Shown: one piece after another, positions 21,015-34,590 of the stretch
Position numbering within the stretch: the stretch's first letter is position 1
How the letters are laid out: every line of letters starts with the position of its first letter
Virus genome (UHGV): UHGV-0404708
Reading direction: 5' to 3' (one strand)
DNA: 39,970 nt
Source of the DNA: a virus
The notes under the pieces: generated by a model
Database searches by the model: none
What the model was told of the DNA's origin: nothing
What the model saw: the letters and a program-made list of their open reading frames with translations, nothing else
Translations under genes and position numbers: made by a program

Positions 21015-22271
21015 GTGCTTACCGATACAAAATTAAAGAACCTCAAGCCACAGGACAAACTGTACAAAGTTTCCGATCGTGACGGGCTGTATGTAGCTGT
21101 GCTTACGTCAGGTACGGTCTCGTTTCGCTATGACTACCGTATCAACGGTCGCCGCGAAACACTGGTAATTGGGCAGTATGGGCGTGACGGTATCAGCCTG
21201 GCAGAAGCGCGAGAAGAACTGATTGCTGCAAAGAAGCTGCTTAAAGCAGGCCAGTCACCGGCTGCGGCTAAACGTGACGGTATCAAAAAGATTCGTGGTG
21301 CCGAGACGTTTGCGGTACATACCGACAGTTATATGAAACACGTCATCCTGGCTGAAAGTACCCGCGCAATGAAGCTGGCAGTGATCGACCGTGACATACT
21401 TCCTGTTCTTGGCAACAAAATGATGGCTGAAATTACCACATCGATGGTTCGTGATTTGTGTGACAGGATTGTCGAACGCGGTGGTCGGGCAACAGCAGTG
21501 CAGGCCAGGGAGATCATCAGCAGCGTATACCGTCACGCCAATGACCGTGGTCATGGTTTGTTTAATCCTGCGGCTGACATTAAACCTTCGTCTATCGCCA
21601 TATTTAAACCACGAGAGCGAACACTGACACCAGAAGAAATTGGCCTGTTCTTCCGCACGCTGGATGCCATTGGTGCTATGGGCACTATGAAAATGGCTTT
21701 AAAGCTGGTGCTTATCACTATGGTTCGTAAAGGCGAATTCACCAATGCAACGTGGGATGAAATAGATTTTAAAAAATGGACATGGACAATTCCTTCAGAC
21801 CGCATGAAGGGAAGCCGGGCGCACGTTATTTACCTGCCTAAACAGGCACAGGATATATTGGTTGGGTTGCAGATGTGCGCTGGTGGAAGTGAATATCTGG
21901 TTCCTGGTCGTTACAATTTCCGGAAGCCATTATCTAATGCCGCGCTGAACTCTCTGATCGACAGAACGGTGAAAATAATAAATGAAGATGGTGAGCATAT
22001 TCAGGACTTCACCGTACACGATATGCGCCGTACAGCAAGTACGTTGTTGCATGAGGCTGGTTATCCTTCAGACTGGATTGAAAAGGCTCTGGCACATGAG
22101 CAGAAAGGTGTGCGCGCCGTATATAACAAAGCGGAATACGCCAGACAGCGCGCCTACATGTTGCAGCAGTGGGCCGATATGATTGATTCCTGGATTAACG
22201 GGGAGCATACGGATCTGATTCCGTTCTCCCCGTCGAAGTTTGAGAAGTGGATGGAAGACAGTAATAAATAA
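21015..22271 (+). CDS. int: tyrosine integrase, P4-type
   Basis: 418 aa, GTG start; N-terminus MLTDTKLKNLKP... typical of P4-family integrases; recombinase-like C-terminal half. Confidence 0.9.
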   Translation: MLTDTKLKNLKPQDKLYKVSDRDGLYVAVLTSGTVSFRYDYRINGRRETLVIGQYGRDGISLAEAREELIAAKKLLKAGQSPAAAKRDGIKKIRGAETFAVHTDSYMKHVILAESTRAMKLAVIDRDILPVLGNKMMAEITTSMVRDLCDRIVERGGRATAVQAREIISSVYRHANDRGHGLFNPAADIKPSSIAIFKPRERTLTPEEIGLFFRTLDAIGAMGTMKMALKLVLITMVRKGEFTNATWDEIDFKKWTWTIPSDRMKGSRAHVIYLPKQAQDILVGLQMCAGGSEYLVPGRYNFRKPLSNAALNSLIDRTVKIINEDGEHIQDFTVHDMRRTASTLLHEAGYPSDWIEKALAHEQKGVRAVYNKAEYARQRAYMLQQWADMIDSWINGEHTDLIPFSPSKFEKWMEDSNK

Positions 22272-22273
22272 TT

Positions 22274-22933
22274 CTATCCTTCCTGGACTTTGGTAAGCGT
22301 CAGATTTCCGCAGAACACTGCTCCGGTGTCGATGTACATCTGGTTTGCATACACCAGTGGGTGATGTGCTGGCGTATGACCGAAGATGAACAAATCGGCA
22401 CCGGTTATCTCCGAGACAATACCGTCCTGCGCGTCGCTAACCCGTTCACGATTCCATATCACCATTTCTTCTGGTACTGGCTTATCGAATGCGTATTCGT
22501 TGTGCGGGTAGTCTGCGTGACAGATGACGACCTTCTTATTGCCGGTAACCAGTTCGATAATCATCGGGAGGTTGGTAATCTTTGGCAGAAGGTATTTGAG
22601 TTGCACATCCTGCTCAGAATCAAGTTGGTGCCACCATCCACCGCCGTTTGACATCCAATGTCCGAAACTTCCGCCGTTGACCAGTGCATCCAGCATCATC
22701 TGCTCATGGTTGCCACGAACAGCTCGGAACCACGGCATAGTAATCAAATCCAGGCATTCGACGTTTTCAGCGCCGCGGTCAACAAGGTCACCAACGGAAA
22801 TAAGTAAATCGCGCGCCGGGTCGAATGAAACTTTGTCGAGTTCGTTCATCAGCAGCGTGTAGCACCCATGCAGATCGCCGACGACGAAGATATTGCACCA
22901 GTCAGCGCCATTGATGCGTTGATATAGGTTCAT
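22274..22933 (-). CDS. serine/threonine protein phosphatase (calcineurin-like metallophosphatase)
   Basis: Track ORF 22274..23053; ATG 22933 (ATGA overlap); motifs GDLHG, GDLVDRG, GNHE. Confidence 0.85.
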
Positions 22934-23580
22934 GCTGCACGCTCCCGCCCCTGGTTGTCTATTGGTGACACCGGAGCATTGCTGAATGCATTTGTTAATC
23001 CGCCAATATCCAACGCGTATCCAGGGTGTAGTTGCACTGCCGGGTCTTCGCACTGATTACCCCAAACATCGAAGCCATGAGACGTCTGGCGGGCGAACAG
23101 TTCAATGCGAGAAACATCGCCTAACAATTGCACAAGTTTTTCACGAACGACATCTGGTTTTCTTGAATGCTCAAGCCGCGGTGCGGTAAATGACTGAACG
23201 ATCCCTGCATTAATGCGTGGAGGTAGTTTTCCCTTTACTGCAAACAGGCAATCTTCACTATTGGCGCGAGTCATGTGTCCCATACCCATAACCAGTTTAT
23301 CTGGTTGTCGACTACCACATTTTATCCACGTGAAGCCCTTCATGGTCATCAGACGGAATCCCCAGGCTTCAATAACTTTTAGTGCTTCGAGTGGTTGTGT
23401 TGGCACCCACCACATGGCCAACAGACAGTTTTCATCGGCCAAATCCCACACAGGAAGGCGGCAGATATCCAGCACACTCATAACCGGATATTTAAAACCG
23501 GCACCGCGATTACCATCTGCGGCTTTGTCCCGGTATACCCAGGGTGGATCTGCATAGATTAGTGTGTATTTCTTAGTCAT
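22930..23580 (-). CDS. DNA N6-adenine methyltransferase, MT-A70 family
   Basis: Track ORF 22930..23592 (GTG); ATG 23580; catalytic DPPW motif (IYADPPWVY). Confidence 0.8.
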
Positions 23581-23872
23581 AAACCACCCCACAACATCCT
23601 ATGCCGCTATAGTCGCCACGGCGAAGGCCGTTACCTTTTGTGATACATTGGTCCCTGCGAACCGCGATCCTTGCACGTTCAACATCACCAGAAGCAACAT
23701 CCATACACTGAAGCCAAAGGTGAGCGGCAATGCGGAACTGCCCTTTTTTTTCTCTTTCAATCGCGCGTTTTTCGATCTCTATCGCCGCAGGAGTAACGGC
23801 GACAATCTTTGACGGACTGCGCATTGAAACCTTATTCATGTGATATTTTTCAAGTCGGCTTAACTTTCTCAC
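23573..23872 (-). CDS. hypothetical protein
   Basis: 99-aa ORF, GTG start per track; within leftward early operon. Confidence 0.5.
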   Translation of the reverse strand: MRKLSRLEKYHMNKVSMRSPSKIVAVTPAAIEIEKRAIEREKKGQFRIAAHLWLQCMDVASGDVERARIAVRRDQCITKGNGLRRGDYSGIGCCGVVYD

Positions 23873-23981
23873 TTAATCCAACCCTCTCTGAAAATTAATG
23901 CCAGCAGATAAAGCCATGCTGAAACAGAGGCCAGGAATAAGTACCATCCTGACCATTTGCTCCAGTGCCTTAGCAGCGCAC

Positions 23982-24230
23982 TCATGCAGCGTTGCTCACG
24001 GGACGATATACACGTTGCTGAACAGGAGGTTTTTTACCCTGGAACTCTGCTGGGCTTGCTGCCTGACGTTCATCAAGCCAACGTTCAACTTCATCACGGT
24101 TCCATGCGCAGCGTTTATCGGTGATATACCAGCGTTTGGGAAATTCCCCTGCGCGCTCCATACGGTCGATAGTGCTCCATGACAGTGGCACCACCGCCAG
24201 GAGTTCCTTCTTACCTAATGCACCTTTCAT
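23982..24230 (-). CDS. AlpA-family DNA-binding protein (possible excisionase/regulator)
   Basis: Track ORF 23982..24251 (TTG); ATG 24230 with SD GAGAGG; LSWSTIDRMERAGEFPKR...W pattern like AlpA/Xis-type proteins. Confidence 0.55.
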   Translation of the reverse strand: MKGALGKKELLAVVPLSWSTIDRMERAGEFPKRWYITDKRCAWNRDEVERWLDERQAASPAEFQGKKPPVQQRVYRPVSNAA

Positions 24231-24279
24231 AAATACCTCTCTTGGTTGCAATGCGGCGCGCGTGGCGCCGCGGTGGTGG

Positions 24280-25197
24280 TTACATAGATGTTTCGTTTAA
24301 TTCTTCCCGGCGAACGCTGTAAACGTCGGTAGCTTTTGCCAGCAGTTCGTCATCATCTGAAAGTTTTTGTGCAATGTATTTGTAAGCCTTATCTAGTTCG
24401 GAGACAGTGCTGTAATTCATCGCTGCGCTGGTAAAGGCCATCAGCATTTCTTCTGGATCACGGCTATCCGCTTTACGCGTTTGCTCATCAGGCTTTTTCA
24501 CTGTTTTAGCGTTGATCAGACTGTTCATGCTGGATGCTGTGCCGTGCTTTGCCTGACTTCTTGGAGTTACGTCACGTTCAATAATGTCAGGTGAGTCGAT
24601 ATATTTACCTTCCATTTCCTCAGCTGTGGCTTGTTGACCAATCTCCGGCCATGCTTTACGTAATGCCTGTGCCTCTGCGCATTTTGCCAACTGCGCATAA
24701 GGGCGCTTTTTCCACATGGCATTTGGTGCCGATGTGTCACGCCCCCCAGTTGCATAGTTCTCAATCCAGTATTCTTTGGCGCTAAACTCTACGATTTCCC
24801 CGCTTGCCATTCGCTTGCTGACGGTGTACTTACACCACTGAGGGAAGGTAACCTCTACGCCTGAAAGCGTTTGTGTTACATCTGGACCGAACTCAGGTTC
24901 ATTAGCGCCTGCGTAATCGCCGGAACGGTAGGCCTGAATGCGATAAAGTCCAATGCCAGGCATGACCACGTCGCGCCATTCATTCTTTCCACTCTTCGAG
25001 TCTTTAACACTCATTGGTACCAGGTGTACCGGCTTAAGAAGAGGATCGAGTTGACGCGCCCGGCAGTAATCGACTGCCATCATTACCGATTCATCTTTTG
25101 CCCCAGGGTAAATACTGTTTTTCAGAGCGCTCCATGTAACTTCATCGATTCCCCGAATAGCCAACACATCATTGGTGATTGCAATTTCGTTGCTCAT
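24280..25197 (-). CDS. recT: RecT-family single-strand annealing protein
   Basis: Track ORF 24280..25224; ATG 25197 (ATGA overlap with upstream exonuclease stop); RecT-like central region. Confidence 0.7.
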   Translation of the reverse strand: MSNEIAITNDVLAIRGIDEVTWSALKNSIYPGAKDESVMMAVDYCRARQLDPLLKPVHLVPMSVKDSKSGKNEWRDVVMPGIGLYRIQAYRSGDYAGANEPEFGPDVTQTLSGVEVTFPQWCKYTVSKRMASGEIVEFSAKEYWIENYATGGRDTSAPNAMWKKRPYAQLAKCAEAQALRKAWPEIGQQATAEEMEGKYIDSPDIIERDVTPRSQAKHGTASSMNSLINAKTVKKPDEQTRKADSRDPEEMLMAFTSAAMNYSTVSELDKAYKYIAQKLSDDDELLAKATDVYSVRREELNETSM

Positions 25198-26015
25198 ACA
25201 TACATATCCTGTTTGCGTGCCCACTCAGGGCGTTTAATAATTTCCACGCCGCCCCATTCATCGCTGATGCGGCATTCGTGATAGGTATTCAGATCCCGGC
25301 GGAACAGAGCGTGCCCGGCATCGACATCCGGCGCATCCAGCTCGAACACGCGTACCGGATACCGACCACAATCAATGCTTTCGCTCACGGCAAGAAAGAA
25401 AAAACCATGCGGCTGACCAGTAACCCTCATTGCGCCTTCGCGGTACATTGCGTCCTGCACGTGGTAGCGGAATTCCTCGATGTGGCGTGCAAAACGGTCC
25501 ATATCTGCAACCTTTTTCACGTCGACGATCACGTTGTGCTCGTTCAGCCATTTGTCTGGACGAATTCGGCACAACTCACCCGTCTCTTCATCGTTCCAGT
25601 ACATTGATGCTTCGCAGTAACCAGGTGCTTCCAACATCCAGCGCGCCGCCGGATGAGCCATTGCGCTATCACGCATCAGCTCCAGTTTTCGCCACTGCTC
25701 GACATCAAGTACCGTAATACCCATATCCGCCACATCACGAAGAAATGCTTCTTCGTGAGCTTTACCTTGTTTTGTCCGACGATCGAATTTCGGTGAAACA
25801 ATGAAGCGTTTGTCGAACTCTCCAGGCTCCAGAAGCAGACAGTGCAATGCGGTTCCCATATCTAGTGCAGACTTTTTCTCTTCGTCTTCTGGTGCTGCCT
25901 GAACCCATTTAAGAAGCGCCGGATTCTTGGCTACCATGTCCAGTTGCGACTTACTCACGCCGTCACCGGCGTGGTAGTCTTCGTTGCTGATGTCGAAATA
26001 AATTCCCGGTTTCAT
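25194..26015 (-). CDS. recombination exonuclease (RecE/YqaJ-like), partner of RecT
   Basis: 273 aa; nuclease-like N-terminal region; immediately upstream of and coupled to RecT. Confidence 0.6.
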   Translation of the reverse strand: MKPGIYFDISNEDYHAGDGVSKSQLDMVAKNPALLKWVQAAPEDEEKKSALDMGTALHCLLLEPGEFDKRFIVSPKFDRRTKQGKAHEEAFLRDVADMGITVLDVEQWRKLELMRDSAMAHPAARWMLEAPGYCEASMYWNDEETGELCRIRPDKWLNEHNVIVDVKKVADMDRFARHIEEFRYHVQDAMYREGAMRVTGQPHGFFFLAVSESIDCGRYPVRVFELDAPDVDAGHALFRRDLNTYHECRISDEWGGVEIIKRPEWARKQDMYV

Positions 26016-27955: not shown

Positions 27956-28789
27956 ATGAGCAGACATGCAACAGATTGGGCCTGGGAGACAGATCCAGGT
28001 AGCTCATCATTAAAGCTCATACTGCTCTCGATGGCTGACAGAGCCGATGAATATAACCTCTGCTACCCCAGCATAGAACGCCTCGTTAAAGACACTTGCC
28101 TGAATAAAAAAACCGTGCAGGCCGGGCTTATATCGCTCATGAAAATGGGGCTTATTTCAGATACCGGAGAGAGAAAGGGAGCGACAAAAAGAGTGCGGGT
28201 TTTCTCTCTTAATATAACCAAAAACGGGAACATTAAAGGCAACCTGGAGGGGGGCAATGAACCCGAAAACGGTAATGTTACCGAAAACGGGAATATACCC
28301 AAAAACGGGATGTTGAATGATCCCAAAAACGGGATGTTGAATGATCCCAAAAACGGGATCCAGAACCAGTCATATAACCAGTCATTTAACCAAGAGAGGG
28401 AGAGCAGGACAAAAACCGGGGATTCTGTTCCTCATGACCCCGGCGCAAACAACGCCGTGATGAATAACTTTGTTCCTCCTGGTTGGCCAGGGCAATTAGG
28501 CAAATTTGTCATGCATGAACAATGGCAGCCATCAGATGACTTTCTTCGGAAAAGCTCATTGCAGGGAATCTACCTGGACAGTCTGCCAACGGCACAGGAA
28601 CTTGCAGAGTTCAGAATTTACTGGATGGCTGAGGGTAAGGCATACCATCAGGCACAGTGGGAGCAGAAGCTGGCAAGGCGCATCCAGTTCTGTAGACAGA
28701 AATCAGGTGAAGTCAGAAAGAGCCTTGACTGGCATAACACTGACTGGATAGATGAGGTGTGGGATGAAATCAACTCCAGAACTTCTTAA
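27956..28789 (+). CDS. replication initiator/replisome organizer (O-like) with internal iteron-encoded repeats
   Basis: 277 aa; N-terminal HTH-like region; central tandem PKNGMLND repeats; C-terminal F..WQP-type segment; directly precedes P-like gene. Confidence 0.6.
   Translation: MSRHATDWAWETDPGSSSLKLILLSMADRADEYNLCYPSIERLVKDTCLNKKTVQAGLISLMKMGLISDTGERKGATKRVRVFSLNITKNGNIKGNLEGGNEPENGNVTENGNIPKNGMLNDPKNGMLNDPKNGIQNQSYNQSFNQERESRTKTGDSVPHDPGANNAVMNNFVPPGWPGQLGKFVMHEQWQPSDDFLRKSSLQGIYLDSLPTAQELAEFRIYWMAEGKAYHQAQWEQKLARRIQFCRQKSGEVRKSLDWHNTDWIDEVWDEINSRTS
28217..28360. repeat. iteron array (candidate origin of replication) inside initiator gene
   Basis: Six copies of AAAACGG(G/T) core starting 28221, 28266, 28284, 28302, 28326, 28350 (spacings 45, 18, 18, 24, 24), two forming an exact 24-bp tandem. 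Confidence 0.55.
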
Positions 28790-29546
28790 TGAGTACGATC
28801 GCTTTCGTGGTGGGCATGACCACTCGACGGCGGTTGCTTCTGCTGACGATGAAAGGGCAAAGAAGGAGCAGGTTGCAAGAATTTTCAACGAAATGTTTGT
28901 CCAGTTACAGGCTGCATTTCCAGGCAGCATCGCTGCTATCAGCGAGCAAGGAAAGCTAAACGAATTTCGAAAACAATGGATTCTTGCGTTTCTGGAGAAT
29001 GGGATCACAACAATGGAACAGGTTAACGCTGGTATGCGCCACGCCCGCGCCAGTGAATCTCCGTTCTGGCCGTCGCCAGGGCAATTCATCAAGTGGTGTA
29101 AAGACAGCAAGATGGTTCTTGGCGTCACCATTGACGATGTGATGGCGGAGTTTCACCGGTACAGCAAGGAAAAAAGTTTATATCCTGGTGGTCCAGAAAG
29201 ATTCCCGTGGCGACATCCGGTTATGTACTGGGTTGTATGTGATACCCGCCGCGCAATGTATCAGCGCCAGCTTAGCGAGATTGAGGTTGAGAAACACGCG
29301 CGCAGGCTGCTCGATGATTGGGCTAAAAAGGTGGCTTCCGGACAGCAGATACCCGATCCGGTGATCAGCATACAGGCAAAGCCAGAGCCCATGAGTACAC
29401 CTCCGGACACAGGGAGAGACGTTTACCATCCACCAGGGCGAAGTTTCGGGTGCATGCCTAACGCCGCCACCCTCGGGGGAATAACACCGGCGCAGTGGCT
29501 GATGGAGGAATACAGGCGGGGAAAGGCGGCAGGATTTATCAAGTAA
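28764..29546 (+). CDS. replication protein P-like (helicase loader)
   Basis: Track ORF 28752..29546; ATG 28764; central block WILAFLENGITTMEQVNAGMRHAR...SPGQFIKWC closely matches the lambda P pattern as I recall it. Confidence 0.75.
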   Translation: MKSTPELLNEYDRFRGGHDHSTAVASADDERAKKEQVARIFNEMFVQLQAAFPGSIAAISEQGKLNEFRKQWILAFLENGITTMEQVNAGMRHARASESPFWPSPGQFIKWCKDSKMVLGVTIDDVMAEFHRYSKEKSLYPGGPERFPWRHPVMYWVVCDTRRAMYQRQLSEIEVEKHARRLLDDWAKKVASGQQIPDPVISIQAKPEPMSTPPDTGRDVYHPPGRSFGCMPNAATLGGITPAQWLMEEYRRGKAAGFIK

Positions 29547-29598: not shown

Positions 29599-29645
29599 CA
29601 AAATATTCTAAACTCTATTGATTTCGTGTCTTATGTGGTTTTTAA

Positions 29646-29660
29646 TTACCTTAGAGGTAA
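29646..29660. promoter_or_regulatory. operator-like palindrome overlapping the SD of 29664..30008
   Basis: TTACCTTAGAGGTAA exact; right half-site doubles as GAGGT Shine-Dalgarno 3 nt before ATG. Confidence 0.45.
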
Positions 29661-29663
29661 ATC

Positions 29664-30008
29664 ATGAGAAAACAGATACAGGCTCTTGGTCGACTCAAAA
29701 CAGGCCAGATGAACAAAACAGAATCTGCGTATTGCCAGCACCTTGAGCTGCGTAAACGTGCAGGGGAAATCGCCTGGTATCGATTCGAGGGTATCAAGCT
29801 GCGGTTGGCTGACAACACGTTCTATACGCCCGATTTCGCTGTGATGCTCGCCACCGGCGAGATGGAACTGCACGAAGTGAAAGGTTTCTGGACCGACGAC
29901 GCCAGGGTGAAAACCAAAGTCGCAGCAGACCAGTACCCGTTTCGCATCATCGGGGTAACGGTTAAGACAAAGAAAGCGGGTGGTGGGTGGAGCATCGAAG
30001 AGTTCTGA
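29664..30008 (+). CDS. DUF1064-like small nuclease-fold protein
   Basis: 114 aa; YRFEGIKLRL...FYTPDF...HEVKG pattern as in lambdoid DUF1064 proteins. Confidence 0.55.
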   Translation: MRKQIQALGRLKTGQMNKTESAYCQHLELRKRAGEIAWYRFEGIKLRLADNTFYTPDFAVMLATGEMELHEVKGFWTDDARVKTKVAADQYPFRIIGVTVKTKKAGGGWSIEEF

Positions 30009-30069
30009 ATCGACGATCTTTTTAGTTATCAATGTAATCAATAAGTTATGTGGATAAGCGAGGGTAAAG

Positions 30070-30630
30070 ATGGAAAGTAATATCAAAGGGTTAGTTGCCG
30101 CCGGGTATGAGATGGCTTCGGAACTGAAAGCAGAATGTGGTGCCGTTGATATGCGTAGTGTGGCAAAGCTGATCAGCGATTTGGCAACGCAACTGGAAGT
30201 GCAACTGGTGCGTGCTAATGCGCTGGCAGAAGACCACCAGAAAGCGATTGAGTCAATTAAGCAGGCTGATGCAGCTGTTAAGTTGGCACACGAGAAGTTT
30301 TCGACGCTGGCGGCGGAGAATGCAGCCCTGAAAGAATCTGAGCGAGCATTCGATGAGATGTGTGCCGAGGAACACGGAGATAATTGGGTTAGCGAATTAA
30401 CGGAGACTCCAGCCACCGACGCTTTCCTGGCTGAAGTACGGGCGCAGGGGGTGGATGCTGCTATAGACGCTGCAAAAAATCTGGTGGCTCAGGAATATGA
30501 GTATAAGGATTTCAAAGCGGCGCAGAGTGATTGCTGTATGTTTCCTGGTTCAGACCTGGTAGGGAAGGTTGAAATGACCGAGTGGTTAGTTGACTTTGCC
30601 GCAGAGCTTCGCAAAGGAGGCAACCAGTGA
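30070..30630 (+). CDS. hypothetical protein (coiled-coil, ea/nin-type accessory)
   Basis: 186-aa ORF with SD GAGGG; stop overlaps next start. Confidence 0.55.
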   Translation: MESNIKGLVAAGYEMASELKAECGAVDMRSVAKLISDLATQLEVQLVRANALAEDHQKAIESIKQADAAVKLAHEKFSTLAAENAALKESERAFDEMCAEEHGDNWVSELTETPATDAFLAEVRAQGVDAAIDAAKNLVAQEYEYKDFKAAQSDCCMFPGSDLVGKVEMTEWLVDFAAELRKGGNQ

Positions 30631-31259
30631 ACAAGATTGACTATCAGGCACTGCGTGAGGCGGCAGAGCGTGCAATTCCGGCAATGGAACGCCTGTTAAT
30701 GTTGCCAGTTGATGATGATCTGATAAGCGAGCAGGAACTTAAAGATAGCGGTGTTGATATTGATGCGCTCAACGCCTTCAAAATTCTGGCCGGACCAGAA
30801 ACCGTGCTGGCGCTACTGGATGAACGGGAAAGAAACCAGCAATACATCAAATCTCGCGACCAGGAGAACGATGATATTGCGCTAACGGTAGGGAAGCTGT
30901 TAATCGAAAACGGTCAGCTTGTTGCCGATACGCTACGCCACTTAGCTGATAACGAAATCGACTCTGATTATTTTGCTATCACCTCAACTAATGAGAACGG
31001 TACTGAAATTGATCATGAGATGTCTATTACCGATTACGCACTGCAAGCTGCCGGAACTGTAGACGAATTGGTTGCGGCGCTGGAATCCGCAGAGAAGCGC
31101 ATTGCAGAACTGGAAGCGCGGGAAATACTGCTCCCGGTACGTAGCAGCATGCTTCATCGAACAGATTTTCACGATGATTACCAAACGGTAATGGCATACA
31201 AAGTTTCTGAAGTCATCGATGCAATCCGCGCTACTGGCATTCGCATCAAAGGAGAGTGA
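30627..31259 (+). CDS. hypothetical protein ending in junction motif GIRIKGE
   Basis: 210 aa; C-terminus encoded by repeated junction sequence. Confidence 0.55.
   Translation: MNKIDYQALREAAERAIPAMERLLMLPVDDDLISEQELKDSGVDIDALNAFKILAGPETVLALLDERERNQQYIKSRDQENDDIALTVGKLLIENGQLVADTLRHLADNEIDSDYFAITSTNENGTEIDHEMSITDYALQAAGTVDELVAALESAEKRIAELEAREILLPVRSSMLHRTDFHDDYQTVMAYKVSEVIDAIRATGIRIKGE
31236..31259. repeat. module-junction repeat, copy 1
   Basis: GGCATTCGCATCAAAGGAGAGTGA: last codons plus stop of upstream gene and SD of next. Confidence 0.8.
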
Positions 31260-31264
31260 GTGAT

Positions 31265-31462
31265 ATGGATAAAAACACCACTGCTTACTGGAATCTGTCA
31301 CTTGATACCGAATGCCCCAAATGTGGTCACAATTTCGATCTGCTCTGTGATGCTGATTTCTGGGAGTTTTCTGGAGCAAAACAGGCATGTGAAGAAATAA
31401 AAGGTTACGAAACATGCTGCCCAGAATGTAACCATGAATTTAAAACAGATTTTGTGTATTGA
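31265..31462 (+). CDS. small zinc-ribbon protein
   Basis: Track ORF 31256..31462 (GTG); ATG 31265; two CxxC pairs (CPKCGH...CCPECNH). Confidence 0.5.
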   Translation: MDKNTTAYWNLSLDTECPKCGHNFDLLCDADFWEFSGAKQACEEIKGYETCCPECNHEFKTDFVY

Positions 31463-31472
31463 GGCATAACGA

Positions 31473-31943
31473 ATGACCACTTTTACTAAAGAACAATTAA
31501 TTGATCATATTAATGATCGCAAAGATGTCCGTCAGAGAATGTTGGAAACTGCGACGATTTCTTCTGGATTCAGAGAATATCTTGAAAGAGAGCTTGCTAC
31601 CGATCAGATTGCCCTAGCTTCGCTGGAAGCAGAACCGATGGCATGGCGATATCGCTACGTGAAAAAAAGCATTACGGACTCACAGGGGGAGCCGTGGGTT
31701 GGTGACTGGAAATATGTACCGACAAAAGAGGATTGCAACGACAGACCGAACTATGAAATTCAGGCGTTATTCACTGCCCCGCCTGTGCCACTGACACCAG
31801 AAGGATTGATTAAAGCAGTGCGCTTCTATGAACAGGTTAAGCGTGAAAATCCGCCAGTCGAAACCGGAGTATGGAAAGACGCTGTTGACTGGGTGCTCAA
31901 AGAGGCTTGCCAGGCTGTAAACATTGGCATCAAAGGAGAGTGA
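31473..31943 (+). CDS. hypothetical protein, N-terminal paralog of 32592..33176
   Basis: 156 aa; shares MTT(F/I)TK start and IALASLEA(E/K)P motif with 32592..33176; ends in junction motif. Confidence 0.55.
   Translation: MTTFTKEQLIDHINDRKDVRQRMLETATISSGFREYLERELATDQIALASLEAEPMAWRYRYVKKSITDSQGEPWVGDWKYVPTKEDCNDRPNYEIQALFTAPPVPLTPEGLIKAVRFYEQVKRENPPVETGVWKDAVDWVLKEACQAVNIGIKGE
31922..31943. repeat. module-junction repeat, copy 2
   Basis: CATTGGCATCAAAGGAGAGTGA, 21/22 identical to copies 1 and 3. Confidence 0.8.
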
Positions 31944-31945
31944 GA

Positions 31946-32437
31946 GTGCAGATTTCACCGGTTACTCTTCGTGTTGCGAAGGCGTTTATATCCAGACATC
32001 ACCGACACAATAAACCCCCGGTGGGGCATAAATTCAGCATTGGTCTGAGAAATGATGCCGGAGAATTGATAGGTGTGGCGACAGCCGGTAGACCTGTTGC
32101 ACGACATTTGGACGATGGATTAACGCTTGAAGTAAATCGCACATGTACCACAGGAGAACGCAACGCTAACAGCGCGCTTTATGGTGCTGTCTGGCGGGCA
32201 GCAAAAGCTATGGGTTATCAACGTTGTATTACGTACACCCAGGCAGATGAATCAGGAGCATCTCTTCGCGCAGCTGGTTTTGTTCGTGTGAAAGAGCTTC
32301 CTCCAAGAAAAAGCTGGGCGGAATCAAGCGTCGCCTTGCGGAGTAAACGCGATCCGGTCGGAAACGGTGGTGTTCCTCGTGTGCTCTGGGAAATCAGGAG
32401 AATGAGTACCACTGGCATTCGCATCAAAGGAGAGTGA
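31946..32437 (+). CDS. hypothetical protein (possible acyltransferase-like), ends in junction motif
   Basis: Track ORF 31907..32437 overlaps upstream gene; GTG 31946 just after the upstream stop with junction SD 7 nt before. Confidence 0.5.
   Translation: MQISPVTLRVAKAFISRHHRHNKPPVGHKFSIGLRNDAGELIGVATAGRPVARHLDDGLTLEVNRTCTTGERNANSALYGAVWRAAKAMGYQRCITYTQADESGASLRAAGFVRVKELPPRKSWAESSVALRSKRDPVGNGGVPRVLWEIRRMSTTGIRIKGE
32414..32437. repeat. module-junction repeat, copy 3
   Basis: GGCATTCGCATCAAAGGAGAGTGA identical to copy 1. Confidence 0.8.
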
Positions 32438-32438
32438 T

Positions 32439-32588
32439 ATGGCTAAGTACATCGTGACTATCGAAGGATTTAATGATTGCAAGGTTGTTGAGTTTGAAGC
32501 AGACACGCCAGAGGATGCCGAAGAAATAGGCAGAGACATATTCTATGAAGAATGCAACTACGGCGTATCACCTGCTACAGAGGACTAA
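32439..32588 (+). CDS. small hypothetical protein (49 aa)
   Basis: Not in track; ATG 32439 with junction-repeat SD GGAGAG 6 nt upstream; translation MAKYIVTIEGFNDCKVVEF... Confidence 0.4.
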   Translation: MAKYIVTIEGFNDCKVVEFEADTPEDAEEIGRDIFYEECNYGVSPATED

Positions 32589-32591
32589 CAC

Positions 32592-33176
32592 ATGACCACT
32601 ATTACCAAAGGGCGACTGCTGACAATCAAGCAGTGGCGCGAAACATACGGACCGGGTAGCAACGTTGTACTGCCAGCAGAAGAAGCGGAAGAACTGGCAC
32701 GAATTGCTCTGGCATCGCTCGAAGCAAAACCAATAGGTGCATTCCACATTGCAGAACAGCAAGTTGACGGCACAAGTGACTACCTCAAGGATGGAGAATG
32801 GCCTATTGATAATGGGACAATTGAAGTATACGCCGCCCCTCCAGTGCCAGTAGTACCGGAAGAAAAACCAATGCCTAATCCTCTTAGCATGTACGCGGTT
32901 GATGCTGTTGCCGCTATTGCAGAGGTGAGAGGCTGGAACGCCTGTCGTGCCGCTATGCTTCAGAGTCAAGGTAATTGCATTAAGGATGGTTGGATAAGCT
33001 GTAGTGAGCGAATGCCCGCTCAAGATGATTGGATTTTAATTTATTCAAAGCACGGTGAGTATATGGCAGGACAGGTGCAAGGGGAATACGTGGAGTTGAG
33101 CGATGGCACTTTATCGTGGTTAGGGAACGCCTTGTTCTGGATGCAGCTACCAGAACCGCCGCAGGAGGTGAAGTGA
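32592..33176 (+). CDS. hypothetical protein with DUF551-like C-terminal domain
   Basis: 194 aa; N-terminus paralogous to 31473..31943; C-terminus W..CSERMP...WMQLPEPP pattern. Confidence 0.55.
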   Translation: MTTITKGRLLTIKQWRETYGPGSNVVLPAEEAEELARIALASLEAKPIGAFHIAEQQVDGTSDYLKDGEWPIDNGTIEVYAAPPVPVVPEEKPMPNPLSMYAVDAVAAIAEVRGWNACRAAMLQSQGNCIKDGWISCSERMPAQDDWILIYSKHGEYMAGQVQGEYVELSDGTLSWLGNALFWMQLPEPPQEVK

Positions 33177-33544
33177 TGGACTATTCACAGTTAAGTGATT
33201 TTGAAATTAACAGAATGGTAGGAGACATAATTTTTAAAGGCCTTTGGGCGTGTAAACCGGAAACATCAGGGAATAACACCAACAAATGGTATTACGGAAA
33301 TACTGATACAACTTTTGAGCCATTAAACCCTTTACCTGACTACTGCAATGATCCGAGAGCTGCATGGCCTGTAATCGCAAAACATCAGATCAGCATATGT
33401 GCATACGAAAGAAATAATCATGGAATGAAGAATGAATATTGGTGGGAGGCGGATAGATTTTGTGAATTTATTACCATAGACAATAACCCACTACGCGCCG
33501 CCATGATTGTCTTTCTCATGATGCAGGAAAATCAGAATGGCTAA
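33176..33544 (+). CDS. hypothetical protein
   Basis: Track ORF 33116..33544; ATG 33176 overlaps upstream stop (TGATG). Confidence 0.5.
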   Translation: MDYSQLSDFEINRMVGDIIFKGLWACKPETSGNNTNKWYYGNTDTTFEPLNPLPDYCNDPRAAWPVIAKHQISICAYERNNHGMKNEYWWEADRFCEFITIDNNPLRAAMIVFLMMQENQNG

Positions 33545-33875
33545 ATCAGCAGCAGAGCGCAAAGCCGCTCAGAGAGCCAGACAAGCTGCATCTGGTGTGC
33601 GTAAGCTGGAGATTGTGCTTGATGCTCAGGAAATTGAAATGCTGGAGCGTAACTGTGCCACGCGTCGCCCCGGGCGTGCGCCTTACGAATTTGGTGAGTA
33701 TATAGCGTTACTGATCCGCCAGGATGATGCACGCGTGCACGGGCGTATAAAATCTATCAGCAGAAAACGTTGCGGTAAGTGTGGCGAGAGAGTTCCAGTT
33801 AATTCATGTCCGTGTAATGGTGACTCACAATGCTGGGTGACTAAAGGCTGGCATGAAACGAAATTAATAGTGTGA
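33537..33875 (+). CDS. Arg-rich, Cys-cluster protein (candidate late-gene regulator)
   Basis: 112 aa; basic N-terminus, C-terminal CGKCGERVPVNSCPCNG; last gene before terminase operon; stop codon inside GTGACATGTCAC palindrome. Confidence 0.45.
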   Translation: MAKSAAERKAAQRARQAASGVRKLEIVLDAQEIEMLERNCATRRPGRAPYEFGEYIALLIRQDDARVHGRIKSISRKRCGKCGERVPVNSCPCNGDSQCWVTKGWHETKLIV

Positions 33876-33883
33876 CATGTCAC
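33872..33883. repeat. GTGACATGTCAC palindrome, copy 2
   Basis: Perfect 12-bp palindrome containing the TGA stop of 33537..33875, same register as copy 1. Confidence 0.8.
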
Positions 33884-33924
33884 GAGTAGATTATGCATGA
33901 TGAATTTGATGGGTTTTGAATACT

Positions 33925-33950
33925 GCCGCCAACTATGGCGGCTTTATTTT
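33925..33950 (+). terminator. rho-independent terminator before terminase operon
   Basis: GCCGCC-AACTAT-GGCGGC followed by TTTATTTT. Confidence 0.7.
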
Positions 33951-33961
33951 GCATGGTACTA

Positions 33962-33976
33962 TTACCACAACGGTAA
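33962..33976. promoter_or_regulatory. operator-like palindrome upstream of terminase genes
   Basis: TTACCACAACGGTAA exact; a weaker copy TTACCACGGTGGTTA follows at 33980-33994. Confidence 0.5.
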
Positions 33977-33993
33977 CTATTACCACGGTGGTT

Positions 33994-34590
33994 ATGATGC
34001 CTGCTGAACCTAAAACCTATAAACGCAAATCAACGCAATTTAAGCCACTAACAGCAATGCAGGAGGCTTATTGCCAGTCATACATCAAAACGCCTGAAAA
34101 CCAGACTCAGGCAGCGATTAACGCAGGATTTTCCCCAAATACAGCGGCAGTTAAAGCCAGTGTCATGATGCGCGATGAACGCATTCAAAAACGGATTGCC
34201 GAGTTGATGGAGGAGCGCAACAAACGAATACGCGTCAGTGCTGATTACGTTCTCATGCGGCTGGTGGAGATCGACCAGATGGACGTGATTGATATCCTCA
34301 ACGACGATGGGAGCCTTAAGCCAATCCGCGAGTGGCCGAAAATCTGGCGCACTACGCTTAGCGGCTTTGATCTGTCATCGACCATCATGAACATGAACGA
34401 GGATTCGATAGAGACAATCCTCAAAAAAATTAAATGGCCTGACAAGGTGAAGAACCTCGAACTGATTGGTAAGCACGTCGACGTCAACGCATTCAAAGAA
34501 CGCCTAGATGTTAATGTGAATGTGACAATTGCTGATCGCATAGCAGCAGCCAGGAAGCGACTCAAAGAACGTCAGGATGGTAATCAGTGA
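33994..34590 (+). CDS. terS: terminase small subunit
   Basis: Track ORF 33916..34590; ATG 33994/33997; small-terminase-like composition; stop overlaps terL start. Confidence 0.7.
   Translation: MMPAEPKTYKRKSTQFKPLTAMQEAYCQSYIKTPENQTQAAINAGFSPNTAAVKASVMMRDERIQKRIAELMEERNKRIRVSADYVLMRLVEIDQMDVIDILNDDGSLKPIREWPKIWRTTLSGFDLSSTIMNMNEDSIETILKKIKWPDKVKNLELIGKHVDVNAFKERLDVNVNVTIADRIAAARKRLKERQDGNQ

Follow-up and report, generated by a model that had tools for sequence, protein, structure and literature searches.

Two models for the mosaicism of phage genomes have long been debated: homologous exchange at conserved linkers and random illegitimate joints followed by selection. The first, in which homologous recombination is focused on short boundary or linker sequences, goes back to Susskind and Botstein (1978) and to Clark et al. 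(2001) for HK620, and is cited with the reservation that most boundaries show no such sequence (PMC3029335). Clear and abundant examples of linkers are rare, because most mosaic boundaries lack a conserved sequence. Traces of homologous recombination, and relaxed homologous recombination by Rad52-like phage recombinases, have been described (Martinsohn 2008, PMC2327257; De Paepe 2014, PMC3945230), and recombinases of this type, including RecT and Erf, drive mosaic formation (PMC3945230). The minimal segment for efficient pairing is 23 to 27 bp for Red-beta and 31 to 34 bp for RecA (PMC3945230), and minimal homology has been put at about 30 bp (PMC2327257). The Ea22 proteins of lambda/Stx phages, encoded in the exo-xis/ea region, are mosaic at the protein level, with a shared N terminus and coiled coil and unrelated C-terminal domains (PMC10834534). 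The present analysis concerns a short repeat found at three gene junctions of the virus genome UHGV-0404708, whose entire sequence of 39,970 nucleotides (nt) is referred to as the window and provides all unprefixed coordinates.

Comparison with other phages and prophages indicates that this repeat is probably a conserved intercassette linker ("boundary sequence") of ea-type accessory arrays in enterobacterial temperate phages, by which cassettes are exchanged through homologous recombination. The window corresponds essentially to the genome of a phiV10-like (Uetakevirus-type) Escherichia coli phage, with ~96% identity to phiV10 over the structural and lysis genes. Its linkers are found in an array of small genes, all encoded on the same strand, with the replication genes on one side and the small terminase gene (33916 onward) on the other. 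The array genes are of the "ea" type (eae-like, Ea22/Ead-like, EaA/DUF551-like, and NinX-like); in P22-like phages and HK022, ea-type genes belong to the early-left operon and adjoin xis and int.

Sequence and anatomy of the linker

The 24-mer GGCATTCGCATCAAAGGAGAGTGA is present as exact copies at 31236-31259 and 32414-32437 on the plus strand, and the variant AACATTGGCATCAAAGGAGAGTGA, a 3-mismatch copy, is present at 31920-31943 on the same strand. The number of 24-mer matches expected by chance is 0 (none in 100 dinucleotide-preserving shuffles). Copies 1 and 3 share an identical stretch of 27 nt, ACTGGCATTCGCATCAAAGGAGAGTGA (31233-31259 = 32411-32437). The 22- to 24-bp repeat that the initial annotation had reported at three gene ends (stops at 31259, 31943, and 32437) is therefore confirmed as two exact copies and one copy with 3 mismatches, each forming the in-frame 3' end of an open reading frame (ORF). 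The copies, with their Shine-Dalgarno (SD) sequences, and the genes that they connect are as follows.

30627..31259, plus strand: Ead/Ea22-like gene (PF13935, 89.2 bits versus a cut-off of 27, 4.6e-25); its last 8 codons are linker copy 1.
31233..31267, plus strand: linker copy 1; the 27-nt exact repeat encodes ...TGIRIKGE-stop of the Ea22-like gene, with SD AAGGAG at 31249-31254, stop TGA at 31257-31259, an extra GTGA at 31260-31263, and the next ATG at 31265.
31265..31462, plus strand: zinc-ribbon cassette of 65 amino acids (aa), CxxC...CxxC, phrog_4173, 3' of copy 1 (right cluster R11); no linker at its end.
31473..31943, plus strand: phrog_660 gene (4e-54), with an EaA-type N-terminal module (MTTFTK...IALASLEAEP), ending in linker copy 2.
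31920..31948, plus strand: linker copy 2 (variant AACATTGGCATCAAAGGAGAGTGA), ...NIGIKGE-stop, with SD at 31933-31938, stop at 31941-31943, and the GTG start of the Mom-like gene at 31946.
31946..32437, plus strand: Mom-like/XF1762 gene (NF045478 and phrog_1384 matches), ending in linker copy 3.
32411..32441, plus strand: linker copy 3; 27-nt exact repeat of copy 1 at 32411-32437, ...TTGIRIKGE-stop, with SD at 32427-32432, stop at 32435-32437, and the next ATG at 32439.
32439..32588, plus strand: phrog_1997 cassette, 49 aa (right cluster R16), its start served by linker copy 3.

Three genes do end in the linker, as in the initial annotation, but they are not strictly consecutive: the 65-aa zinc-ribbon gene, without a linker at its end, intervenes between the first and the second of them, after copy 1. 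The shared C terminus, GI(R)IKGE-stop, was found at all three gene ends, with the Arg codon missing from copy 2 (…NIGIKGE*).

The proposal that the repeat supplies the SD sequence of the following ORF also agrees with the sequence. AAGGAG precedes the next start by 10, 7, and 6 nt in copies 1, 2, and 3, respectively (ATG 31265, GTG 31946, and ATG 32439). The geometry is that of a coupled junction, with a hexamer complementary to the anti-SD sequence 5 to 10 nt 5' of the start and the upstream stop a few nucleotides from it, and AAGGAG is presumably used as the SD sequence in vivo. The start after copy 2, GTG in the window, is ATG in relatives such as locus L010. In copy 1, a 4-nt GTGA duplication follows the stop (31260-31263; GAGTGAGTGATATG versus GAGTGATATG in copy 3), lengthening the SD-ATG spacing from 6 to 10 nt and creating an alternative, overlapping GTG.

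Among unrelated upstream genes, conservation extends from ~15 nt ahead of the core (…CGCGCCGCTGGCATTC…) as far as the next ATG; the linker is therefore ~27 to 37 nt long. Its layout, …[CGCGCC]GCTGGCATTCGCATCAAAGGAGAGTGA-N-ATG, spans the stop and start of the adjoining genes. Arrays with three copies within 3 kb are rare, being limited to the window and L094 among 135 sequences.

Reassortment of flanking modules

Relatives match the array region in only 4 to 7 short pieces with 92 to 97% identity. When window positions 29600-34000 were compared by blastn with 12 annotated phage loci, homology blocks were 30 to 150 bp long, and their ends recurred at 31255-31264, 31943-31945, and 32441-32443, which correspond to the three linker copies. 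The linker motif is present in nearly all 12 annotated phages, always on the coding strand and as …KGE-stop, after otherwise unrelated proteins. A scan of IMG/VR with the 17-nt core common to all three copies matched at least 120 stretches, and among the matches listed, 130 instances from other phages or prophages had full flanks. The core closes an open frame of at least 90 codons in 127 of these 130 instances, and in ~90% of them an ATG follows 1 to 2 nt after the TGA (TGA-N-ATG or TGA-NN-ATG).

When 150 nt of flanking sequence per side were clustered (80% identity over 90 nt), 17 types were distinguished upstream and 24 downstream, and these occur in 66 combinations. These include 123 complete 2-by-2 squares, in which two upstream and two downstream types are present in all four pairings. 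Linkage was assessed on the 108 nonredundant contexts that remained after deduplication. Mutual information between the upstream and downstream types was 1.65 bits versus 1.35 ± 0.06 bits for shuffled labels, with entropies of 3.5 to 3.9 bits, and the 66 combinations compare with 77 expected under complete independence. Mutual information near the shuffled value and the similar number of combinations place the two sides close to linkage equilibrium, and linkage across the junction is almost erased.

The linker is a conserved element at a gene boundary, with alternative nonhomologous modules on both sides and with the switch in homology inside the element, as described for boundary sequences. 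Absence of cassette shuffling in related phages had been named beforehand as the finding that would speak against an exchange hotspot; in the comparison, cassette boundaries coincide with the repeat and shuffling is abundant. A role of the linker as a hotspot for homologous cassette exchange is supported by the flank combinations, their near-independence, the breakpoints at the copies, and the precise indels of the Mom-like cassette described below, the mechanism being deduced from these products.

The cassettes downstream of the linker (L016 to L132) include a peptidase M15, a ClpX-type zinc finger protein, and several proteins of 60 to 250 aa without a Pfam family, e.g., MIHYHGGPITPDTC… (251 aa) and MALTHRELCQIAYKF… (171 aa); some downstream ORFs are disrupted (R6 and R19). 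A Pfam scan of ten downstream cassettes mostly returned no family, with peptidase M15, a ClpX-type zinc finger, and a weak zinc ribbon as the matches and no common functional theme.

Precise presence or absence of the Mom-like cassette

The Mom-like cassette and one linker form a 494-bp unit (window 31944-32437), and in the window, as in L010, L013, L018, L019, L033, L039, and L094, a linker copy stands at either end of the cassette. In L068 and L069, the upstream module (…NIGIKGE*) is joined directly to the genes found after the cassette in L010 and L094. The two independent empty/occupied pairs, L068 versus L010 and L069 versus L094, differ by exactly the 494-bp cassette plus linker. In each pair, the only overlap between the left and right homology blocks lies within the shared 17 to 22 nt of the linker, and the junction is free of scars. 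This pattern matches the product expected of direct-repeat recombination or of unequal crossover between genomes.

The encoded protein matches NF045478 (XF1762 family) with 204.7 bits versus a cut-off of 50 and phrog_1384 ("Mom-like") with 4e-42, and its match to PF25680 (Mom), at 22.4 bits, lies under the cut-off of 27.1. By these matches, the gene at 31946-32437 is classified as a member of the XF1762 family that is only distantly Mom-like. This acyltransferase-type gene may function in DNA modification or antirestriction. The Mom-like protein is found at 100% identity in P2-like phage PhiR44_2 and Wanchaivirus PDP110P2.

The closest homologue outside E. coli, from Pectobacterium phage ZF40 (73% identity over 152 aa), ends …LWEVRR*, which aligns to …LWEIRR of the window protein; the latter adds MSTTGIRIKGE* (11 residues). 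More distant homologues align only to residues ~112 to 152.

Distribution of the linker

A search with a linker-derived 31-mer (28 or more identical nt) located it in 1,134 of 5,426 complete E. coli genomes (21%), at 1,559 places and up to 5 times per genome. It was also found in 106 phage records, including HK022, VT1-Sakai, VT2/933W-type Stx phages, P27, POCJ13, P7, and P22-like Salmonella phages, and in P1-like RCS47 and P2-like PhiR44_2. At least five phage lineages are represented, among phiV10-like, P22-like, HK022, Stx, P1/P7-like, and P2-like phages. Of the placement in a "lambdoid accessory region" made by the initial annotation, the accessory ea-type array stands, but the host phage is phiV10-like rather than strictly lambdoid, and the linker spans several lineages.

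The linker is present on 147 plasmids as well, of which 129 are predicted to be nonmobilizable and many are ~92 to 110 kb in size; some are from Klebsiella pneumoniae and Shigella. These sites are consistent with P1/P7-like phage-plasmids and suggest spread beyond E. coli.

Proposed mechanism

The linker probably combines two functions. As the translation-initiation region of the downstream cassette (AAGGAG 6 to 10 nt before the start), it would couple translation, since the upstream stop lies 1 to 2 nt before the start; because it doubles as an initiation region, the upstream ORF would read through it and gain the …GIRIKGE tail. It would also be a patch of perfect homology, because numerous phages and prophages have the identical sequence at junctions of many unrelated genes, and recombination within it could join any upstream to any downstream module and leave the genes undamaged. 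A single crossover between collinear genomes would reassort the two arms, and whole cassettes would be gained or lost when direct copies in one array undergo unequal crossover or deletion; the deletions predicted for the window are 494 bp (copy 2 by copy 3) and 1,178 bp (copy 1 by copy 3).

Exchange would proceed by homologous recombination on short perfect homology, with phage annealing proteins of the RecT, Red-beta, or Erf type as the likely enzymes and RecA acting less efficiently. The length of the linker falls within the minimal pairing range of Red-beta-type recombinases. Two genes of the window constitute the phage's own recombination system, and their products are the presumed catalyst.

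24280-25224, minus strand: RecT-family annealing protein.
25194-26015, minus strand: PDDEXK exonuclease.

The sequence anatomy, the combinatorial flanks, the breakpoints and indels inside the linker, and the grafted tail would all be expected from such exchange, and several points count against it. Recombination is read from extant sequences, no event having been observed directly, and 27 nt only just reaches the length needed for efficient recombination. The left flanks of the empty/occupied pairs are only 88 to 90% identical, and the pairs are therefore not very recent relatives. Sites were chosen by an exact 17-mer, so that junctions that have lost the linker are invisible. Near-identical prophages, many from one species, may inflate the counts, which the deduplication to 108 contexts mitigates. 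The region also contains many intragenic breakpoints and nonlinker junctions; the linker is therefore not the sole route to mosaicism, and some joints may have arisen by illegitimate recombination followed by selection.

Alternative explanations

The alternative that survives best extends this last point to the linker itself: it would be conserved merely as a good initiation or coupling region, and the joints would be products of illegitimate recombination at random sites, filtered by selection for intact genes and ribosome binding sites (a Hendrix-type model). Its most invariant parts are indeed the SD sequence AAGGAG and the stop-start spacing of 1 to 2 nt, and one phage record annotates a ribosome_binding_site under the linker match. 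This model also agrees with the many intragenic breakpoints elsewhere in the region and with reports that most mosaic boundaries lack conserved sequences (PMC3029335). The need for an SD sequence, however, leaves unexplained the 12 to 20 additional conserved nucleotides upstream (GCTGGCATTCGCATC), which are identical at synonymous sites in at least 14 unrelated genes. Nor would random joining add one and the same set of 8 to 11 codons to a Mom-like protein when the homologue stops short of them, or give scar-free cassette indels between two copies. Illegitimate joining as the general explanation is accordingly considered unlikely.

Selection on the peptide is much less probable still. GIRIKGE could be a functional C-terminal peptide (a degradation, localization, or partner-binding tag), with conservation of the DNA as a by-product; the tail is always in frame, 127 of the 130 instances terminate a long ORF, and tail variants retain K-G-E. 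The K-G-E codons (AAA GGA GAG), however, are the SD sequence itself, and the tail is carried by proteins of unrelated folds and sizes. Codon variation was examined at 107 distinct sites found without fixing the upstream codons. The exact sequence GGCATTCGCATC is present at 71 of these, and in the near variants the four codons before KGE show 4 synonymous versus 9 nonsynonymous changes, the opposite of purifying selection on a peptide. The ZF40 protein, at 73% identity, lacks the tail. This absence and the lack of synonymous bias place conservation at the level of the nucleotides, not the peptide; the linker is therefore conserved as nucleotide identity by descent or conversion, and the tail is a graft, a passenger on the upstream protein.

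Recognition of the linker by a site-specific recombinase, as an integron-like attC or a homing site, was rejected as highly improbable. In its favor, the arrangement is reminiscent of a cassette array whose cassettes are gained and lost precisely, and the upstream module L16, judged by eye, resembles an AP2/HNH-type protein. Nevertheless, no inverted repeats were found at the three junctions, where fold z-scores (-0.16, +0.29, and -0.02) give no palindrome or stable hairpin, and no dedicated recombinase is linked to the arrays in the annotated phiV10-like, P22-like, P1-like, and P2-like contexts. Rfam gave no match at the linker and one subthreshold chance match outside it. The only integrase in the window is that of the prophage.

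21015-22271: prophage integrase, 9 kb from the linkers.

Leftovers of local tandem gene duplication, which direct copies within 1.2 kb and an N-terminal module shared by two neighboring genes might have suggested, were dismissed as the least credible origin, since the three linker-ended genes (Ea22-like, phrog_660, and XF1762 acyltransferase-like) are unrelated outside the linker and each has its closest relatives in different phages.

Beyond exchange at individual arrays, the linker could conceivably be a maintained, pan-lineage "adapter" that makes the ea-type region a recombinase-agnostic system of cassette exchange, common to phages and phage-plasmids of the phiV10-like, P22-like, lambda/Stx, P1/P7-like, and P2-like types. 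Foreign genes (e.g., XF1762/Mom-like) would be domesticated by grafting onto the linker, which would be homogenized by gene conversion and retained through second-order selection that favors fast turnover of accessory genes, possibly ones with antidefense functions. Such a system would be functionally integron-like but run on general or single-strand annealing protein-type recombination; this wider proposal is speculative and is put forward tentatively.

Other junctions and genes of the region

The linker with the KGE codons is the most promiscuous of ~10 short conserved islands in 30400-33182, several of which are intragenic. Two further junctions and the neighboring DUF551 gene are as follows.

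30606..30630, plus strand: second junction linker GCTTCGCAAAGGAGGCAACCAGTGA, located between the eae-like and Ea22-like genes; it encodes …LRKGGNQ-stop, and start and stop overlap in GTGA.
32592..33176, plus strand: EaA-like DUF551 gene (PF04448, 41.2 bits versus a cut-off of 22, residues 133 to 191), with islands at 32580-32613 and 32691-32739.
33150-33179: junction of the DUF551 gene and the next gene, …PEPPQEVK-stop with an ATGA overlap, conserved in 24 instances.

At the second junction linker, 14 upstream and 7 downstream flank types occur in 22 combinations with 4 complete 2-by-2 squares; shared sequence (…TTCGCA..AAAGGAG…) indicates that it is probably related to the KGE linker. The junction at 33150-33179 has 9 by 7 flank clusters in 14 combinations and no 2-by-2 squares; it is one more boundary island, which in this case closes a truly conserved domain.

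Short intragenic islands (30400-30455, 30795-30899, 31078-31127, 32691-32739, and 32981-33016) are present in 35 to 79 of 132 loci, and the stretches between them in only 1 to 20 of these loci. The Ea22-like and EaA/DUF551-like proteins are therefore themselves assembled from modules joined at conserved patches of 30 to 100 nt. The Ea22-like gene of the window is itself internally mosaic, with islands at 30795-30899 and 31078-31127.

The N-terminal segment MTT(F/I)TK...IALASLEA(E/K)P, which the genes at 31473..31943 and 32592..33176 had been noted to share, was recovered by BLASTP of the two proteins (E = 4e-5, 29% identity over ~110 aa). The conserved islands common to both N termini are MTT(F/I)TK, IALASLEA(E/K)P, and APPVP, and the shared segment also appears as repeats D6 and D7 of the window. 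The phrog_660 gene has, in addition, a portable C-terminal module of 50 aa (31796-31943; L010 2501-2646; …PEGLIKAVRFYEQVKRENPPVETGVWKDAVDWVLKEACQAVNIGIKGE) that ends in copy 2. This module accompanies the Mom-like cassette into a P2-like phage, and in other phages it is joined to different N-terminal parts.

The array is preceded by the replication genes, a DUF1064 gene among them, and the early-left operon (22274-26015, minus strand) carries two genes besides those for the RecT-family protein and the PDDEXK exonuclease.

22274-23053, minus strand: metallophosphatase.
22930-23592, minus strand: MT-A70 DNA methyltransferase.
27956-28789: DnaT-like replication gene.
28752-29546: lambda-P-like replication gene.
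29664-30008: DUF1064 gene.

About seven direct repeats with an 18- to 24-nt unit (core CCNAAAACGGGA) lie at 28210-28362 inside the DnaT/helix-turn-helix replication-initiator gene (27956-28789). They look like origin iterons within an initiator gene, as in lambda O.

Comparison with known systems

The searchable literature contains no description of the linker, of the GIRIKGE tail, or of the IALASLEAEP segment. Clark et al. (2001) is outside that text, and because HK022, a classic lambdoid phage, carries the linker, it may have been noticed there before. The epsilon34 paper does not mention ea genes.

A defined sequence of ~30 nt, present at thousands of sites in nature, with nearly complete reassortment of modules, scar-free indels, and the minimal pairing length of Red-beta/RecT makes the linker hypothesis directly testable. 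The linker also explains the …GIRIKGE tail shared by many unrelated prophage proteins, which is relevant to annotation and to the definition of domains, and it may be useful as a natural landing pad for accessory cassettes in temperate phages.

Among the described systems, the Ea22 proteins (PMC10834534) belong to the same family as the gene at 30627-31259, but that work concerns mosaicism at the protein level only, with neither a 3' nucleotide linker nor its reuse by non-Ea22 genes. Integron attC cassettes share with the linker array the promoterless single-gene cassettes in one orientation, a recurring short element, and precise gain and loss. Unlike attC, the linker has no hairpin-forming imperfect palindrome or dedicated integrase, is part of a coding sequence and ribosome binding site, and is proposed to act through general homologous recombination. 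The traces of homologous recombination reported previously (PMC2327257 and PMC3945230) resemble the present case in that mosaic segments have short flanking homology and Red-beta, RecT, and Erf act on short or diverged homology; RecT is also encoded by the window phage. Those traces are residual homology over hundreds of base pairs, whereas the linker is one nearly invariant element of ~30 nt reused at many loci.

The closest counterparts are the boundary sequences of lambdoid phages, which likewise are short conserved sequences at gene boundaries, flanked by alternative nonhomologous modules and proposed as foci of homologous recombination in the accessory ("metabolic domain") regions of temperate enterobacterial phages. 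The present linker differs from them in lying partly inside coding sequence and adding a peptide tail, in spanning nonlambdoid lineages (phiV10-like, P1/P7-like, and P2-like), and in occurring up to three times per array, which would permit insertion and deletion of cassettes as well as exchange of arms. The concept of the boundary sequence is old, and the linker is an unusually well-documented further example of it.

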